Virus record (IMG/VR): IMGVR_UViG_2703718777_000015
Length of the DNA stretch: 64,000 nt
Direction: 5' to 3' (one strand)
Source: a virus
Lineage: Duplodnaviria > Heunggongvirae > Uroviricota > Caudoviricetes
Shown: piece by piece, positions 8,005 through 61,824 of the stretch
Layout of the letters: each line of letters starts with the position of its first letter
Position numbering within the stretch: the first letter of the stretch is position 1
Made by a program: the position numbers and the translations under genes
Notes under the pieces: generated by a model
The model's input: the letters and a program-made list of their open reading frames with translations, nothing else
Databases searched by the model: none
Told to the model about the DNA's origin: nothing

Positions 8005-8006
8005 AG

Positions 8007-8033
8007 AAATCCCGCCAATCGGCGGGATTTTTA
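8007..8033. terminator. Bidirectional intrinsic terminator between convergent operons
   Basis: Hairpin AAATCCCGCC-AATC-GGCGGGATTT followed by T-run; approximate coordinates. Confidence 0.55.
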
Positions 8034-8035
8034 CC

Positions 8036-9130
8036 TCACGAGAAGCTCTTTTCTGATGTCAGCCAACAGTGCTCGTGCAAATCTCTTGGTGGTTTTTCGA
8101 CAAATGCCTCTTCAGCCACATCCTGCCAGGGGATTTGTTTAGCCCATTCAGCTATAGCGTTATGGTTTGCCGAGAATAACGGTATTGTATAGGCCTTCAG
8201 CCAGTCTAATGTGCTGGAGTTGTGTTTTTGAGCGTGATGTTTCGCATGGTGTTTGGCGATCACGATCGTAGGCACTACCCATTTACTACCGTCAGTCATT
8301 GTGAAGTGCATATTACGGGGAACAGATGACTTTTCCATCAACTCCCGAATCCCGGGAAATTTCCCCAAGATCAATCGGCGATATTCATCGCTATTGCGCC
8401 CACCAAACTCTTTGGCTTTGAATTCAAGATATGCTTCAGAAACGAGAGGTGAATCCTCTGTGTTTAGAGTTATCGCCGTGAAAAAACCAGCAGGATTGTT
8501 TTTACTATGGGCCAACCGGTGATGCGAATCATAAAAGTACCCTTTCTCGCGTTCCGATGGTTTCGACAGCAACAGCAGGCGCGAGTCATAATTGGTTAAA
8601 TTGCCAGTTATCACTGCATGAGCGCGATCGCTGATTTCCGCCGAGTTAATAACGATGAAAAGATCGTGCGGTCCAGTAAAACCAGCCAGAGACACTTCGT
8701 TATTCAGACAATAGGTTATATAGACGCATCCCCATATTTCACTGATATGCACCAACCCTTTGTCAGGGTGCATTCTGAAATGATTGCCAAGAAAAGGGTG
8801 TTTTTGGGTAACTTGCTCCCAATAACGGAACATATAGTCAATTATTGTTTTTCGACTATCGTTAATAGCAGGAGAAACAACCACTGTACGGGAACACGAA
8901 TACAGTATTGTTTGCAGGATGCTAATCACTGCCACAATAGAGGTTTCCCCAATACCATGTGGTGTGGTGGCAGTGACTTTGGCTCCGGTGTTCTTTATCG
9001 CGTTAATAATTTTTGCTTGATGAGGTGTTAACTCAATATCAAGCAACTCTTTCGCTGCCAGTTCCCAATTGTCTTTATACTGTTCTATCAGTGCTAACCA
9101 GGCAGGTTCATTCTGTATACGATTAGTCAC
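8036..9130 (-). CDS. Terminase large-subunit ATPase-domain paralogue with degenerate Walker A/B motifs
   Basis: 364-aa ORF; clear similarity to PacB (28367..29851) N-terminal half (e.g. GYFYDSHHRLA vs [24 protein letters not shown] vs [13 protein letters not shown]); P-loop reads PHGIGETS (PacB GHGTGKSD), Walker B reads IVINSAE (PacB YIIDEAS); no nuclease domain. Confidence 0.6.
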   Translation of the reverse strand: MTNRIQNEPAWLALIEQYKDNWELAAKELLDIELTPHQAKIINAIKNTGAKVTATTPHGIGETSIVAVISILQTILYSCSRTVVVSPAINDSRKTIIDYMFRYWEQVTQKHPFLGNHFRMHPDKGLVHISEIWGCVYITYCLNNEVSLAGFTGPHDLFIVINSAEISDRAHAVITGNLTNYDSRLLLLSKPSEREKGYFYDSHHRLAHSKNNPAGFFTAITLNTEDSPLVSEAYLEFKAKEFGGRNSDEYRRLILGKFPGIRELMEKSSVPRNMHFTMTDGSKWVVPTIVIAKHHAKHHAQKHNSSTLDWLKAYTIPLFSANHNAIAEWAKQIPWQDVAEEAFVEKPPRDLHEHCWLTSEKSFS

Positions 9131-9917
9131 TTTCCACCTCTTCCGTGGTGTTTTCTTGCAGTTCTGTTAATGCAGCACGACACAGGTTCCGGGCCTTGGC
9201 TATAGCCACACTTTTGACTTCATCTGTCATCGTGCAGGTAATGTACTGATCGAGTTCTTCAGCGCGGATGATGCTTTTGCCAATCAGAAACTGTATTTGC
9301 CAGAGCAGATCGGCATCCATAATCAGAATTTCTGCCGGGCCTTCAGGGCCAGCCGGGAAGGAAACATAAGACTGTTTGCCAAGGCCGATAACTCGACAAC
9401 TTGCTTCAAGAATTGCGCGCTTGAGGTCTGACTTTGTAACTGAAACAGGTTGATTTTCACCTGCGATTACGCCGTTGACATGGATGTGGAAGGGCATGTA
9501 GCTTGAAATTCGCTCTACTTTCCATACGCCAGCAAGCGATCCTTCATGCAGCACAATGGGGGTAACAGCGAGTTTCATCTCACCATATAACTGCTGGCAG
9601 ATAGCTGGATTGCTGAATACATCCAAAGGTTCACACTCAAACAGCGGTGCAATCTGCATGAGGTCCATCATGGTCATACCTGGGGTACGAGCGGTAATGA
9701 ATCTGCGCATGCCAGTATCCATTGTTCGCCAGATAGCTACACCATGCTTTTTGCTCACTTCTTCAGTAAAGCCAAGGTGGCACATGATGGTTTTTTCGAT
9801 AGCCAGATCAGAGATAGAAACCTTTTCGCCTGGCACTCCATCATTATTGATGGTCACTTCGACACTCTGGCCATTACGTAGGCGGTATTGAATGGTTTTA
9901 GTATTTTGTGCTGTCAT
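9123..9917 (-). CDS. Hypothetical protein, upstream partner of terminase-like gene
   Basis: 264-aa ORF overlapping the start of the 364-aa ORF by 8 bp (operon). Confidence 0.45.
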   Translation of the reverse strand: MTAQNTKTIQYRLRNGQSVEVTINNDGVPGEKVSISDLAIEKTIMCHLGFTEEVSKKHGVAIWRTMDTGMRRFITARTPGMTMMDLMQIAPLFECEPLDVFSNPAICQQLYGEMKLAVTPIVLHEGSLAGVWKVERISSYMPFHIHVNGVIAGENQPVSVTKSDLKRAILEASCRVIGLGKQSYVSFPAGPEGPAEILIMDADLLWQIQFLIGKSIIRAEELDQYITCTMTDEVKSVAIAKARNLCRAALTELQENTTEEVESD

Positions 9918-10114
9918 AGTCTTTTCTCTGCTTAAAAACTGATGTATTGCGCCTTCAGGTTGGTTAGGAATGTTTTCCCACCAGCGAAAGCAATATCTCG
10001 GGGTGTTCTATTCGTTAAAAGCGCGTGCCATTGCCAACTTTGGCGTTTTTGAGCGAGTTCGTGCTTTTGTCGGCGTCTGGACCACCGCTTTTCTTTCAGT
10101 CGTTTTTTACACAT

Positions 10115-10603
10115 TCAAAACGGAATATCGTCGTCAAAGTCCATTGGAGGTTCGTTATTGGCGTTGCTCTGAGGTTTACCGCCACCACTGTATTGCTGGT
10201 GGTTTTGAGGTTGGTTTGATTGCCCCCAGCCATTTGAGGACTGTGAATCGTCACGGCGAGCGCCGATCATTTGCATGGTGCCGCCCTGGCTGACGATAAT
10301 TTCCGTCGTGTAACGTTCTACACCGGCGTCATCTGTCCACTTACGGGTTTTAAGTTTCCCTTCGATGTAGACCTGAGAACCTTTTCGTAAATATTCACTC
10401 GCAATTTCAGCAAGTTTTCCGAACAAAACGACTTTATGCCATTCTGTTTGCTCTTTCTGTTGGCCCGTTTGCTTGTCGCGCCATGATTCATTCGTTGCGA
10501 TGCTGAGTCTTCCGACCGCGCCGCCATTTGGTATATACCTGATCTCCGGGTCTTGCCCCAGGGTACCAATCAGGATGACTTTGTTTACACCGCGTTGTGC
10601 CAC
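10115..10603 (-). CDS. ssb: Single-stranded DNA-binding protein
   Basis: 162-aa ORF with OB-fold SSB sequence and acidic C-terminal tail DFDDDIPF. Confidence 0.92.
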
Positions 10604-10622: not shown

Positions 10623-10639
10623 AAATTAATTAGAGCAAT
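10623..10639 (-). promoter_or_regulatory. C1 repressor operator (ATTGCTCTAATTAATTT)
   Basis: 17-bp match to P1 C1 operator consensus ATTGCTCTAATAAATTT in ssb/lyz intergenic region; approximate coordinates. Confidence 0.5.
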
Positions 10640-26909: not shown

Positions 26910-26936
26910 TTGACAATTGCTCTAATAAATTATAGT
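26910..26936 (+). promoter_or_regulatory. C1-operator-overlapped promoter directed toward coi/c1
   Basis: TTGACA then ATTGCTCTAATAAATTA then TATAGT; approximate. Confidence 0.5.
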
Positions 26937-28366: not shown

Positions 28367-29851
28367 TTATTCATTAAGCCATGCCAGAGCTTCATCAACC
28401 TGCGCTTCGTCTTCGACGCTAAGCACTTCATCCTGGGGAACATAATCCGCCAGCATAGCGAAACAATATGTATCCCAATGGTCTGGTGAGTGCAGGTTGA
28501 GTTTTTTCTTCATATCCTCCTTACTCATCACCTTCCATTGACCTGCGGAGTTAATCCCTACAGGGATTTTCGACGCTTCCTCAATAGTTTCATTACCCTT
28601 ATCCAGTCTCATACGACCAGATTTTACGGCCTCTGCGGCTTGAACGTTGGCATAAGCACGTTTATCAAAGTACAGGCTCTTATCTTCACGGCTATGCATC
28701 TTTTTACCCCAGCGTATACGCTGTACGGTAATACCATAATACTCGTACATCAGATCCGCCGTTGCTTTACCCAGGCCATCGCCGTCTATCGCTATGGTGA
28801 TATTTGGGAATCGCTCAGGATTGCATTCTGCGAAAATTTTGGCGGCAAGCTGCGTTTCTGTAACGTCTGTGTATTCCAGCATTCGATAGTTGATTACACG
28901 GCGTTTATTTCGCTGGCCGGACACCATCATGATATTGATAACGGACTTATCCCGTCCCGTACCACCAGCAACGTCCACACATGCAAGCCAGCCCCATCCT
29001 TTGGCAATCTTGACTTTCCGCCGCGTTGCACGTTCAACCTCATCACGTCCAAGAAGGAAGCCATCCTGTGATTTAGGGAATAGGCCGCGTACCTTAATCA
29101 TGTACATAGGGTTATCACGCCCGCCGTACTCCGCCAGCTTCATTTTGATAAATGCTGGCGTTACCAGCGGTGATTCCTCACTGTTAAGCGTGATCGCCGT
29201 ATAAACGCCATCAGGGTTACCAGGACGCTTGGCCAGTTTATGGTGTGTATCGTAGAAATAGCCGCTTGGGCGTGTAGGCTGTGACAGTAATAAGATGCGG
29301 TTATCCTGTCCGGTAAGAGCACCGGTGATGATACCGAAAGCTCTATCACTGACACCGGAGGCTTCATCGATAATATACAGAAGATGATCTGCGTGTTCAC
29401 CGGCGAGAGCTTCTTCACTTCCCAGACGAAAGCCCTTCGGTACTACAGTCCATACACCTTTACCAGTAACCTCATAGAAAGCGGTTTCTGTCAGAACAAA
29501 ATAATCAGCAAGCCATGGGAAACGGCTGGTGGCAGTAGCCCAGTTTATCTTGATGTACTTGAATATACCGGTCATTACCTGCTGAATTTTGTTCGCAACG
29601 ATAATGGCGCGGGCACCGGGATACATGATTATGAACAACATGATCATGATAGAAGTCATGTCTGATTTCCCGGTACCGTGACCAGACGAAACAGATGTCT
29701 TGCTACCCTGTTCCTGCACAGACTCAATAATCAGATCCTGCTGCCAGGTAGGTGTTTTGCCGAACAAAACATCAGCGGCAGCAATCCAGTCATAACGATA
29801 TAGCGCCACCAGCTCGCGCCAACGTGGATCCGTTACGCAACTTCTGGCCAT
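28367..29851 (-). CDS. pacB: Terminase large subunit PacB
   Basis: 494-aa ORF with terminase ATPase motifs and C-terminal nuclease region, downstream of pacA. Confidence 0.9.
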
Positions 29852-31044
29852 TAATCATCATCCCCGTATAGCTTGCGGGTAACTTCTTCGTCTTCCTCCT
29901 CGTCTTCGTCCAGGTCTTGTTCCAGCCATGGGTCGTTTGATACACCTTCAGTATCAACATCTCCATAACCGCCTGTATCAACGATATCGGCGATTTCTTC
30001 CCTACGCTGCTCAATCCACAATGCGGCATCGGCGCGGCGGTTGGCGGCCCGTTCTCGCGCAACTTTGTCCAGATCTTCAAGAGAAGGGCCACCGACGGCT
30101 GTTTGCCTTTCCTCATCATCGGTATTGGTCTTCGGAGCACGCAGATCGGCTTTGATTTGCTCCAGCATCAGGGGCGGCACTTTCCCGCCATGCGCCTCGA
30201 TGAATTCAGCTGCTTCCAGCACTGACCAGTTATTTTCACGCTTTCGTTCGTATGCCAGCTTAACAATGCCAGCTTGCCCCATAGACAAAGCGTGCTTTTC
30301 CGCCTCCCGGCTTTCTTTTCGATAGTTATTCCGGATGCTGTAAATGGTGTTGATCAGGCTGCTTATCTGCGCGGAACAGCTGTTTAGCATGCTCGCGATA
30401 CGGTATTCAGGCGGAGTACCTTCATCATCGTCCTTTTGCTGATCGCGCATTTCCTGCACCAGGCGAATACACGTATCCCTGGCGTTCTCCAGCATAAGGA
30501 GATGAGAAAGAGACTTTTCAAGAAGAGTGGTTTCCAGAACATCGGCCCCGGACCGACGCAACATAGCGCGCGCGGCCTTCCGCGCTTCAACGTTATCTAT
30601 CAGGTAATCGCCAGCTTCGAATTCAAAGCGTTCACCATCATCATCCAGGGTGTCGCGTTCCAGGCGATCACGTAAGGTCCGGTGGGCGCGGGTGATCACG
30701 TCATGATCATCTGAACGATCATTTATGCGCTTATTTTGGCGCTTCGCATTCTCGACTGCGGCACTGACAACGGCATTAACTCTCTGTTTTTCCGCTATTT
30801 CAGCCGCAATATGATCACCTGCATGTTGATCATTAGAGTGATCAATGATCATGCTTTTTAGTGGCTTCCTGACTGGCTTATTTGGCTTGCGGCTGTCCGC
30901 AGTCCTGGTGTCTTCTTTGAAGGCACGGAGATAACGACGTGCGGTATTAGGGTTAAGATTAAACTCGGCGGCATACTGTGCGATGGTGTAACCACCATCT
31001 CGCGCCAGGCGAGCAAAATTCTTTTTGTGATCGTCCCAGGTCAC
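29851..31044 (-). CDS. pacA: Terminase small subunit / pac-recognition protein PacA
   Basis: 397-aa ORF with HTH N-terminus and acidic C-terminus; contains the pac hexamer clusters. Confidence 0.9.
30660..30855. other. pac packaging site (two clusters of TGATCA/GATC hexamers)
   Basis: Four GATC-containing hexamers at about 30666-30720 and four at about 30813-30850 inside pacA; approximate. Confidence 0.6.
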
Positions 31045-42729: not shown

Positions 42730-42746
42730 AAGATTTATTAGAGCAA
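42730..42746 (-). promoter_or_regulatory. C1 operator (ATTGCTCTAATAAATCT)
   Basis: Near-consensus operator between pap-like gene and downstream late genes; approximate. Confidence 0.5.
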
Positions 42747-43253
42747 TTACTGTTGATGGAGAAGCGCGTTTTCATACTCCCTGACCATTAACGTAAGTAC
42801 GCCGTGACTCCTGAAAACACGCGCCACTTCAATCTTATCTTCCAGCGCGAACGCGATTTTACTTAGACCAATTTTCTTAAGGAGAGCAATCTTTGCTGGG
42901 CCGTCATTTCTGTCATCGGTGGCAGGACGCATAGATAGCAAAGGCTCAGCCCCGTTTGTTACGTGCTTACGCAACCAGGCTCGTGTTTTATCCCTGGCTA
43001 TCTCACAGCGCCCGGTTACAAACCAGACCGTGTAAACGTTAAATAACTGGCGCACCATATCAATAACTGGAGTGATGGGAGCATCAGTGTCACAGGCAAG
43101 GTTAAACTCGTTCCAGTGCTCTGTTAATGCACCTTTGCCAGGTGGTGGAAGCAAATGCAGCCTGTCTTCCGTTGCCTCTGATATCGTCCCATCAATATCG
43201 ACTATGACGATATACGGACGTTCCTGGTGTGCGTGTTTATTGAAAATACTCAA
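42747..43253 (-). CDS. pap: HAD-superfamily phosphatase (Pap-like)
   Basis: 168-aa ORF with DIDGT motif near N-terminus. Confidence 0.5.
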   Translation of the reverse strand: MSIFNKHAHQERPYIVIVDIDGTISEATEDRLHLLPPPGKGALTEHWNEFNLACDTDAPITPVIDMVRQLFNVYTVWFVTGRCEIARDKTRAWLRKHVTNGAEPLLSMRPATDDRNDGPAKIALLKKIGLSKIAFALEDKIEVARVFRSHGVLTLMVREYENALLHQQ

Positions 43254-58439: not shown

Positions 58440-58467
58440 ATTACACTAATAAATTTATTAGGGCAAT
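58440..58467. promoter_or_regulatory. Palindromic double C1 operator (ATTACACTAATAAATTTATTAGGGCAAT)
   Basis: Two overlapping inverted operator half-matches at head of the tRNA-plp-ban transcription unit; approximate. Confidence 0.5.
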
Positions 58468-61378: not shown

Positions 61379-61727
61379 GTTGTAACCCTTGAATATCAAC
61401 CACAGAAAGCTCGTCTTTGTAGAAAAAGGCCAGGTTGTGGCACCCCCTCGTTTGAGCGTATGAGCTGGGACCAATTTCGTTCTTCCAGACAAATGGCTTC
61501 AAATCCGTACGGCGAAGCATAAAAACGCGATTTGTTCCGCTCTGATTCCCAATGAGGCAAAAGCCTTCTTTCACCTTGATAGCCTGCAAGTTGTCGAGTT
61601 CACCGCTGGTTACACGGCTATCGAACTCCTTGCGGCTTATTAGCTCCATCTGCATCTGACGACTCCAAACAAATGCCCATTGAAGGGCGATGGCTGAATG
61701 GTACCGAAAACACGACATAAAAAACAA
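61371..61727 (-). CDS. Hypothetical protein upstream of hrdC
   Basis: 118-aa ORF with C1 operator just upstream. Confidence 0.35.
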
Positions 61728-61741
61728 TATTTATTAGAGCA
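61725..61741 (-). promoter_or_regulatory. C1 operator (ATTGCTCTAATAAATAT)
   Basis: Near-consensus operator upstream of minus-strand operon ending in dmt; approximate. Confidence 0.5.
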
Positions 61742-61824
61742 ATTTTGCAATAAGTAAACGCCATACAGACCACAAATAAACTAAGTTAAAATAACGAAAA
61801 TCAGAGCAAATCATTGGTGATGAC

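Follow-up and report, generated by a model that had tools for sequence, protein, structure and literature searches.

This locus raises the question of what a protein resembling the ATPase half of the phage's own large terminase subunit, PacB, is doing in an operon with ssb. The window (the whole 64,000-nucleotide stretch analysed, from IMG/VR record IMGVR_UViG_2703718777_000015, Caudoviricetes) belongs to a P1-type phage-plasmid and contains both proteins. The initial annotation described two adjoining minus-strand open reading frames of 364 and 264 aa, and both are present as claimed (Table 1). The RefSeq records annotate an identical 1095-nt CDS for the 364-aa protein, which is called the paralogue here; its current database labels are 'terminase large subunit' or 'hypothetical protein'. 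It is not encoded beside a small-subunit gene and is not in the late or packaging module: pacA-pacB is at 28367-31044, and the paralogue gene is within the ssb operon, 20 kb from pacA.

Table 1. Coordinates in the window of the paralogue gene, its domains and motifs, the rest of its operon, and PacB for comparison.
Feature	Position	Strand	Remarks
Gene for 364-aa PacB-derived pseudo-ATPase	8036..9130	-	GTG start; stop codon 8036-8038
TerL ATPase-domain fold, residues 1-262 (N-terminal helices, degenerate core, well-conserved lid)	8345..9130	-	AF2, Foldseek, conservation map
Walker A remnant PHGIGETS, residues 57-64	8939..8962	-	E62 codon gaa at 8945-8947
Walker B remnant LFIVINSA, residues 157-164	8639..8662	-	I161/N162 at PacB Asp-Glu positions
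Small C-terminal domain, residues ~265-364, in place of nuclease	8039..8338	-	phrog_17928 type
isaA, 264 aa	9123..9917	-	Stop codon overlaps paralogue start
ssb, first operon gene	10115..10603	-	Annotated ssb in P1
C1 repressor operator (ATTGCTCTAATTAATTT, 1 mismatch) = P1 Ossb/Op21	10623..10639	-	Directly upstream of ssb
Intrinsic-terminator-like hairpin, 10-bp stem (6 GC pairs), then T-rich tail	8007..8030	-	Just past paralogue stop
PacB of same element (494 aa, nuclease half present), comparison protein	28367..29851	-	Genuine terminase

The proposed relationship to the N-terminal ATPase half of PacB is confirmed by BLASTP, which aligns the paralogue to the PacB of the window with 34% identity over 276 aa (E 1e-54), the alignment stopping at about residue 262. 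The figure of about 50% identity given originally holds for the lid only (residues 191-262, 49%, 35/71); identity is 29% in the first 50 residues and 24-33% in the core. The two proteins have in common the Q-motif Gln and the sequences EE-LAG, GYFYDSHH, LN-E-SPLV and YGGR, and both belong to PHROG 5902. This family, which is labelled 'unknown function' and includes PacB, matches residues 2-364 of the 364 in the paralogue (E 1.3e-183), and the last ~90 positions of its profile are the C-terminal domain. There is also a match to the TerL family phrog_2 (E 9e-8). Neither the paralogue nor IsaA, the 264-aa product, has a Pfam, NCBIfam or PADLOC match; in PADLOC-DB 2.0 neither these two nor IsaB matched any model at E <= 0.1, and a sequence search of the PDB gave chance matches only.

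The features of PacB that are missing from the paralogue are the P-loop Lys, the Walker B Asp-Glu pair, the SQPT motif III and the RNase-H-like nuclease domain. Of the residues shared by 85% or more of PacB-type terminases, those that the paralogue has lost all fall within Walker A, Walker B or motif III. In Walker A, PHGIGETS lies opposite GHGTGKSD with E62 at the Lys position, as had been noticed at the outset; the G59/G61 scaffold is retained, and the first positions of the loop (T56, P57) offer no Lys that could compensate. The Walker B acidic pair is indeed lost, but the earlier alignment was shifted by one. Without gaps, LFIVINSA lies opposite LYIIDEAS, and Asp and Glu are replaced by I161 and N162. 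After correct alignment the catalytic residues of both motifs are still absent. PHGIGETS is unchanged in 21/21 close IMG/VR copies and the I-N pair is kept in the same proportion (21/21), with variation in the flanking residues (INS 17, INA 3); one further close copy has a Val-to-Ala change just before I161.

A phmmer query with the nuclease half of PacB found every genuine PacB ORF and 0 paralogue ORFs, which confirms that the nuclease is missing. The protein is nevertheless no simple truncation, since it has a distinct C-terminal domain instead. This domain of ~95 aa is unrelated to PacB, from which the paralogue also differs in being optional and in its early operon, inferred below to be C1-controlled.

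The AlphaFold2 (AF2) model of the paralogue has an overall pLDDT of 85.5, and the blocks covering residues 1-260 are mostly above 90 (88-98, except for the first at 79). Structure prediction had been suggested as a check on the terminase assignment, and it agrees: the best Foldseek matches of the model are Sf6 gp2 (4idh, E 2e-9), the P74-26 TerL ATPase (4znl) and T4 gp17 (2o0j). The C-terminal domain has a pLDDT of 45-77 across most of its length and ~31 at the extreme C-terminus. It contains a His-rich helix, HHAKHHAQKH, and conserved Trp residues, and aligns to positions 407-489 of the 511 in phrog_17928. Homologues of this domain occur as stand-alone proteins (P0120, P0150) and joined to DUF1351 in ORF36 of Xanthomonas phage CP2. 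It is concluded that the 364-aa product is a pseudoenzyme, which has kept the ATPase-domain fold but has lost both ATP chemistry and nuclease domain and is no longer tied to the late packaging operon, and that it is an old offshoot of the PacB-type large terminases that has gained a small C-terminal domain.

Relatives were collected with an exhaustive phmmer search; a word-indexed search had recovered 3 matches to the paralogue and, for its C-terminal domain, 2 fragments. Representatives were defined as clusters at 50% identity, and the ~145 best of at least 200 aa were compared. Twelve of these have neither the Walker A Lys nor the Walker B Asp-Glu nor a nuclease domain (they include P0004, P0006, P0008-10, P0013-14, P0041, P0043 and P0059), while GK[ST] is kept by all of the ~125 others, the Walker B DE by almost all and the nuclease half by most. 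The paralogue itself fits the definition of the dead group, having a PacB-type ATPase domain, no nuclease and neither set of Walker residues. The original description as a catalytically dead terminase-ATPase look-alike is thus borne out and extends to the whole family, most members of which are without the C-terminal domain. In a neighbour-joining tree 11/12 dead representatives group together, with P0043 elsewhere, and the monophyly of the clade is weakly supported (the core set has a bootstrap of 45/100, the full set of 12 one of 7/100). For the most distant members, P0009, P0041 and P0043, the contigs are too short to give gene context.

The 264-aa protein, initially listed as unknown, is IsaA, with 97% identity to residues 57-320 of P1 IsaA. 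IsaB of reference P1 turned out to be unrelated to the paralogue and is not a remnant of it. The AF2 model of IsaA (pLDDT 43) was unusable for a fold search; its gene has a dN/dS of 0.07-0.19. The isaA stop and paralogue start overlap in the sequence GTGACTAA, and the terminator-like hairpin faces the 3' end of the convergent hxr gene. There are 14 C1 operator sites in the window, compared to 0.27 expected by chance. No separate promoter for the paralogue was found at this locus. The sequence is consistent with the proposed co-transcription of the two genes beside ssb. Because isaA and the paralogue overlap at their stop and start codons, and the operon has a C1 operator in front and a terminator behind, we infer that ssb-isaA-paralogue is C1-controlled and made early in lytic growth, the evidence for C1 control being one operator and the P1 annotation. 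We would accordingly expect the operon to be off in the lysogen and expressed when the phage itself grows lytically. The GC content of the paralogue gene is 43-47%, compared to 45-50% for its flanks, with no foreign signature in base composition.

The paralogue was found in 100 of 5,426 complete E. coli genomes and pacB in 599, and ~83% of the pacB-bearing genomes are without the paralogue. In reference P1, the segment corresponding to 8005-9121 of the window is replaced by isaB and IS1, so there is no 364-aa gene. The paralogue gene is accessory. In relatives its slot contains other cargo or nothing, and in other elements it is occupied by a HipA-family toxin. An obligate two-gene system of IsaA and the paralogue was considered and rejected, since 335 E. 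coli genomes have isaA but 100 have the paralogue, and in many D6-like contigs doc/phd comes straight after isaA. Where the pair is present in D6-like elements, an IsaA homologue (47-48% identical) lies directly upstream of the paralogue (49-53% identical). Relatives, and the D6-like lineage as well, have a Tad2-like gene (PF11195, E 1.6e-22) immediately upstream of isaA. The paralogue gene also borders ddrB-hxr, the Dar anti-restriction operon. Two otherwise near-identical elements, L099 and L051, have PacB proteins that are 98.6% identical and paralogues that are ~48% identical over residues 1-240 and ~93% over residues 241-366. By this alignment, the ATPase-like domain of the paralogue is swapped between otherwise near-identical elements.

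The function of such a protein can be explained in several ways. A functionless pacB duplicate in decay would account for the loss of catalytic residues and nuclease domain, and is hardly credible given the state of the gene. Its dN/dS is 0.21-0.42; all the IMG/VR copies are intact (21/21 and 14/14, together 35/35), the E. coli copies match at full gene length (101/101), the dead state is retained across lineages only ~30-50% identical, and a new C-terminal domain has been acquired. On these measures the paralogue family is under selection and is no relic. The main rival to the reading preferred below is the leading idea of the initial annotation, that the dead domain might be an offensive dominant-negative, which would join or compete for the PacA/PacB-type terminase of a rival P1-like phage or satellite, poisoning the ring motor or sequestering the small subunit and so blocking packaging. 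The TerL fold, with its N-terminal helices, PacB-like lid and invariant Q-motif Gln38, is such that interaction surfaces could persist, and there is a precedent in packaging-directed defence in TerI, which binds TerS (10.1101/2025.02.27.640495). An accessory gene with presence/absence polymorphism and a hypervariable N-domain, in a hotspot that also takes a HipA-family toxin, is typical of conflict genes. However, behind a C1 operator with the early genes, the protein would encounter the PacAB of its own phage each time that phage grew lytically, and no immunity gene was seen to be linked to it. Defence genes of the TERi, Tab and Tai types use their own lysogen promoter, and none was found for the paralogue. 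There is also no hint of discrimination, since the paralogue is equally far from self and non-self PacB (34-37%). Judged from the sequences, we consider this role unlikely.

A modulator of the phage's own packaging, which by early binding to PacA, PacB or pac DNA would delay or tune pac cleavage and the headful series, or would act as an assembly factor, is difficult to reconcile with the distribution described above, in that most pacB-carrying E. coli genomes and the normally packaging reference P1 do without it. Furthermore, the allele of the N-domain is uncoupled from that of the resident PacB, which argues against a regulator tuned to that terminase, and the adjoining isaA and ssb were non-essential in a CRISPRi screen (PMC10695390). 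We regard it as quite unlikely, even though the protein is a paralogue of the resident terminase made ahead of the late pacAB, and in D6-like elements its gene shares a strand with pacAB, ~5 kb further downstream. It is very unlikely, in our estimation, that the role is in replication or recombination, with the dead ATPase domain anchored through the C-terminal domain on DNA that is replicating or coated with SSB, for example for concatemer handling or end protection. The domain is missing in most family members, and no DNA-binding motif was recognised in the paralogue. Gene neighbourhood does point this way: the gene is within the ssb operon, in Xanthomonas phage CP2 the C-terminal domain family is found next to Erf, an exonuclease and SSB, in Cronobacter phage JK004 it follows DnaB, and distant paralogues overlap or adjoin genes for Ref-type RecA-dependent nucleases. 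All of these, however, are simply genes of the 'early region'.

The reading that we tentatively prefer is that the paralogue may be an ATP-blind mimic of the terminase, expressed early, which would act through binding; the likeliest form is a decoy or shield in anti-defence. Its genomic setting suggests that its partner most likely belongs to a conflict of the phage with its host or with other phages, and that it does not take part in DNA packaging, because it is probably switched on early together with anti-defence genes. Tad2/DUF2829 proteins are Thoeris sponges, and the Tad2 preprint notes that anti-defence genes co-localise in phage genomes (10.1101/2023.05.01.538930). EcAvs2 is activated by the terminase ATPase domain alone and contacts the terminase-bound ATP, and SeAvs3 reads terminase active-site residues and ATP (10.64898/2026.04.30.721860). 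Because a Tad2-like gene occurs in the operon in relatives, Dar adjoins it, and sensors read the terminase ATPase domain and its ATP, a counter-defence role appears at least as likely as the dominant-negative or regulator originally suggested. The difference between PacB (98.6%) and the N-domain (~48%) in L099 and L051 argues that the target lies outside the resident terminase.

As a counter-defence mimic of the terminase, the paralogue would act stoichiometrically. Made before the late PacB, it would occupy or mask the factors that read the terminase ATPase domain, for which the candidates are the host sensors Avs1-3 or Upx, and terminase-directed inhibitors from resident prophages or satellites. 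Without bound ATP and active-site residues, the mimic itself would give no activating signal, and the swapping of ATPase-like domain alleles would represent an arms race with those factors. That a mimic derived from the immune-recognised domain blocks terminase-reading immunity (Avs1-3, Upx or the terminase-targeting inhibitors) without triggering it, and diversifies in such a race, is conceivable from these analogies, if doubtful. Avs sensors are activated by ligand binding, and a bound mimic might trigger rather than block them; by analogy, Ksap1, Ksap2 and vs.8 are known as triggers rather than inhibitors. Guilt by association is a weak argument, and the HipA-family toxin in the same slot looks more like defence cargo. 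The C-terminal domain is found beside replication and recombination genes, which may indicate a different role.

Related proteins are known. T4 vs.8 is, like the paralogue, a stand-alone paralogue of the ATPase domain of the phage's own terminase, without a nuclease domain and restricted to one phage lineage; it retains Walker A and B and triggers EcAvs2, whereas the P1-type paralogue has lost its Walker motifs (10.64898/2026.04.30.721860). Among 50,697 phage records there was no T4 record in the tblastn matches of the paralogue, and because of this lack of detected similarity to T4-type proteins the two look like independent derivations. Ksap2, the activator of KpAvs2, is likewise an accessory phage protein; it resembles the terminase ATPase domain structurally and is linked to terminase-sensing immunity (PMC11564622). 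It is suggested by the authors that these terminase-ATPase-like accessory proteins may be anti-defence (10.64898/2026.04.30.721860; PMC11564622).

Like the paralogue, pseudo-ATPases and pseudoenzymes generally have kept the fold and lost the catalytic residues under purifying selection. If the paralogue binds PacA or PacB, TerI of Listeria prophages, which is encoded on a mobile element and acts by binding, may be a functional analogue, and so may Ppi and Rpp of PICIs, terminase-directed interference proteins that work by binding and not by catalysis. Unlike the paralogue, terminase-directed interference proteins bind TerS, and they have small folds of unrelated kinds. TerI is moreover constitutive in the lysogen and has dedicated self-immunity genes (10.1101/2025.02.27.640495), whereas for the paralogue the C1 operator argues against expression in the lysogen and no linked immunity gene was seen. 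The literature searched contained no description of a pseudoenzyme paralogue of a viral packaging terminase and no paper on this protein; together with the absence of the gene from reference P1, this agrees with the initial remark that it is not described for P1.

Few tailed-phage proteins are as conserved as the large terminases, which are also a main target of pattern-recognition immunity in bacteria. A family under selection that has the terminase ATPase fold minus every catalytic residue represents a second, non-enzymatic use of this domain, and provides a natural 'ATP-blind' counterpart to T4 vs.8 and Ksap2. The analysis corrects the database labels of the paralogue, and places it in a genetically tractable phage of which both natural carriers and non-carriers exist. 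If the proposed role is true, the paralogue would be an antagonist of defence made out of the very viral protein that is recognised.

The 364-aa paralogue shares 34% identity with the PacB of the same element over 276 residues (BLASTP, E 1e-54), and the resemblance to the ATPase half of PacB noted in the initial annotation is significant. Identity varies along the protein: the N-terminal 50 residues have 29%, the core 24-33% and the lid (residues 191-262) 49%; the figure of about 50% quoted originally holds for the lid, from which it was taken, but not overall. Around residue 262 the alignment stops, with no nuclease half beyond it, as had been claimed. In Walker A, PHGIGETS aligns with GHGTGKSD, which places Glu62 at the position of the P-loop lysine, again as claimed. 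A lysine was also sought at the start of the loop and none is present, which rules out a 'deviant' Walker A. In Walker B, LFIVINSA aligns without gaps with LYIIDEAS, which places Ile161 and Asn162 at the Asp-Glu positions: the acidic pair is indeed lost, but the original alignment was one residue out. Neither Walker motif is intact in the correct alignment.

Positions of the features discussed (window coordinates)
Feature	Position	Strand	Remark
ssb	10115-10603	-
60-aa ORF	9932-10114	-	between ssb and isaA
isaA	9123-9917	-	264-aa ORF
Paralogue	8036-9130	-	364-aa ORF
PacB	28367-29851	-	494 aa
ddrB, hxr		+	convergent on ssb/isaA/paralogue

The AlphaFold2 model of the paralogue has an overall pLDDT of 85.5, with block means of 88-98 across most of residues 1-260 and low confidence over the C-terminal domain. 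The best PDB matches in Foldseek are terminase ATPase domains, namely Sf6 gp2 (E 2e-9), P74-26 and T4 gp17, and comparison with viral structure models gave terminase ATPase domains again. The structure prediction, proposed at the outset as a check, thus points to a terminase ATPase fold. Automatic annotation of either protein is unreliable, because PHROG 5902, labelled 'unknown function', holds both genuine PacB and the dead paralogue, and no Pfam terminase model is over threshold on the window PacB either. The gene is labelled 'terminase large subunit' in one phage record and hypothetical in RefSeq.

Searched exhaustively with phmmer, 1.84 billion representatives yielded 623 matches to the paralogue at E <= 1e-3. 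Among the best matches of at least 200 aa, 12 clusters have neither the Walker A lysine nor the Walker B Asp-Glu, and the nuclease domain is missing from all 12 as well; the description of a dead terminase-ATPase look-alike extends to a whole family. These proteins are 230-270 aa long, or longer where the C-terminal domain (364-366 aa) or a different tail (444 aa) is present, and the lysine is variously replaced by E, H, R, T, M, I or C. The remaining best matches (about 125) retain GK[ST], nearly all of them together with a Walker B DE. Most of the positions that are conserved at 85% or more in PacB-type terminases, yet not in the dead clade, belong to Walker A (56-63), Walker B (161, 162, 164) and motif III, SQPT-R (190, 192, 194), with about a dozen others scattered. 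The two groups have in common the Q-motif glutamine, the P-loop glycines, EE-LAG, GYFYDSHH, LN-E-SPLV and YGGR. A neighbour-joining tree places 11 of the 12 dead clusters together beside the PacB-type terminases, with weak bootstrap values. The members that could be placed lie on P1-like or phage-plasmid contigs, amid early and accessory genes, and at least one adjoins a genuine pacA-pacB pair. Distant dead-ATPase paralogues (L008 5336-6792; L017 3788-4429) overlap or neighbour genes for Ref-type RecA-dependent nucleases (PF16786).

Between P1-type paralogue alleles, pairwise dN/dS lies within 0.21-0.42 except for one pair (0.66); for isaA the range is 0.07-0.19. The IMG/VR copies are all intact (21/21 close copies, in each of which PHGIGETS is unchanged, and 14/14 at 47-53% identity). 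A decaying duplicate is contradicted by the selection data. The sole disrupted copy seen is in E. albertii pEA13_2 (L005 3501-4280, 5597-5899), where ISEc60 lies between the ATPase-like part and the C-terminal domain.

The window, with 97-98% identity to Punavirus P1 records, is a phage-plasmid of P1 type. Reference P1 (NC_005856) has no counterpart of 8005-9121, which holds the entire 364-aa gene and matches E. coli plasmid NZ_JBSQGZ010000009.1 at 100% identity. IsaB, found there instead, was considered as a relative and rejected, the sequences being unrelated. The interval between hxr and isaA, known as the variable region 'isaA-IS1-isaB' of P1-like phage-plasmids (PMC6906374, PMC9603915), is a cargo hotspot. 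Comparison of 8005-9121 with loci L025, L026, L027 and L001 found it empty in pYS169-2, and occupied by a HipA-family HTH toxin (YjjJ) in pYLMB49b, a 95-aa ORF in pF1273-3, isaB and IS1 in reference P1, and the terminase paralogue in the window. The paralogue occurs in 100 of 5,426 complete E. coli genomes, every match being of full gene length and 99 of 101 copies being on plasmids; in the same genomes isaA occurs in 335, full-length isaB in 20 and pacB in 599. With coverage of 80% or more of the query required, 162 plasmids in PLSDB carry a copy.

Just upstream of ssb is a C1 operator that departs from the consensus at one position. When up to 3 mismatches to this consensus are allowed, the window has 14 sites, where chance would give 0.27; together they outline the C1 regulon of the element (for example 26916-26932, 42731-42747, 58451-58467 and 61727-61743). 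On the coding strand no terminator was found within the ssb-isaA-paralogue run of genes; the stop codon of isaA overlaps the start codon of the paralogue (GTGACTAA, with GAGGTGGAAA in front of it), and a strong hairpin followed by a T run lies 3' of the paralogue stop. The proposed co-transcription with the 264-aa gene beside ssb is consistent with the overlap and the lack of an internal terminator. We infer that the lysogen would keep the paralogue repressed and that its expression would begin early in lytic growth. The 264-aa ORF is real, but is not of unknown identity, being 97% identical to P1 IsaA. It has no match in Pfam, and its AlphaFold2 model is poor. In reference P1 the stretch corresponding to the 60-aa ORF is read through, giving a 56-residue N-terminal extension and an IsaA of 320 aa; the annotated P1 start appears doubtful, because IsaA begins at a downstream ATG in the window and in RefSeq plasmids. 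In several related loci a Tad2-like gene (PF11195, E 1.6e-22 for the copy scanned, in L027) lies directly upstream of isaA in the same operon. This DUF2829 gene lies between ssb (or dut) and isaA (L027 3282-3959; L018, L021 3108-3517; L003 2057-2719; L004 1970-2671), a position held in the window by a 197-nt spacer only. Tad2/DUF2829 proteins are Thoeris sponges (10.1101/2023.05.01.538930).

Residues ~265-364 of the paralogue match phrog_17928. This C-terminal domain of ~95 aa is an independent mobile module: it stands alone in cluster representatives P0120 and P0150, precedes a dead ATPase domain in P0023, is joined to DUF1351 in ORF36 of Xanthomonas phage CP2 (L028 1774-3309; neighbours Erf, exonuclease and SSB), and stands alone after DnaB helicase in gene 35 of the P1-like Cronobacter phage JK004 (L029 3001-3297).

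In D6-like phage-plasmids isaA' (47-48% identity) overlaps paralogue' (49-53%). The two genes follow dut and a DUF2829 gene, precede doc/phd and lie ~5 kb downstream of the pacA-pacB of the same element. The PacB proteins of the two lineages share 57% identity, so the pair has diverged about as much as the backbone. Two D6-like elements have PacB 98.6% and IsaA 92% identical, whereas their paralogues are ~48% identical over 1-240 and ~93% over 241-366. The ATPase-like domain has therefore been exchanged independently of the resident terminase, with the C-terminal domain retained. Many related contigs have isaA' and no paralogue, so IsaA belongs to the backbone rather than being an obligate partner. 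On many P1/D6-like IMG/VR contigs (L065-L105) a homologue of IsaA (E 1e-14 to 1e-75) is found at much the same place, ~5-7 kb downstream of pacB, and the gene is thus widespread.

A full-text literature search found no description of the paralogue or its family, in line with the original remark that it was not described for P1. The closest published parallels, the terminase-ATPase-like accessory proteins vs.8 and Ksap2, are not homologous to it by sequence, and vs.8 keeps its Walker motifs whereas the paralogue has lost its own. We class it as a pseudoenzyme offshoot of the large terminase. It is a selected, non-catalytic paralogue of the terminase ATPase domain, an accessory gene of an early operon, and its ATPase-like domain is variable.

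The ATPase domain of terminase is sufficient to activate EcAvs2, and this sensor touches terminase-bound ATP via a bridging ATP; SeAvs3 reads ATP and active-site residues of terminase, and Upx is another sensor of the domain (10.64898/2026.04.30.721860; PMC11564622). T4 vs.8, with intact Walker motifs, is an EcAvs2 trigger (10.64898/2026.04.30.721860), and an anti-defence role for accessory proteins of this kind is put forward by the authors as a possibility (10.64898/2026.04.30.721860; PMC11564622). A dominant-negative action against competing terminases, as originally proposed, is rather unlikely and is ranked second, since the protein would be there during the phage's own packaging, and neither a linked immunity gene nor a lysogenic promoter was found, in contrast to the prophage terminase-interference system TERi, which has both. 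Regulation of the phage's own packaging is improbable, given that most P1-like elements lack the gene and that paralogue alleles are uncoupled from PacB alleles; a role in replication or recombination, suggested only by gene neighbours, is the least probable of these. The reading that we rank first, tentatively, is that the paralogue may be an ATP-blind mimic of terminase; made early, such a mimic would shield the phage against terminase-directed immunity.
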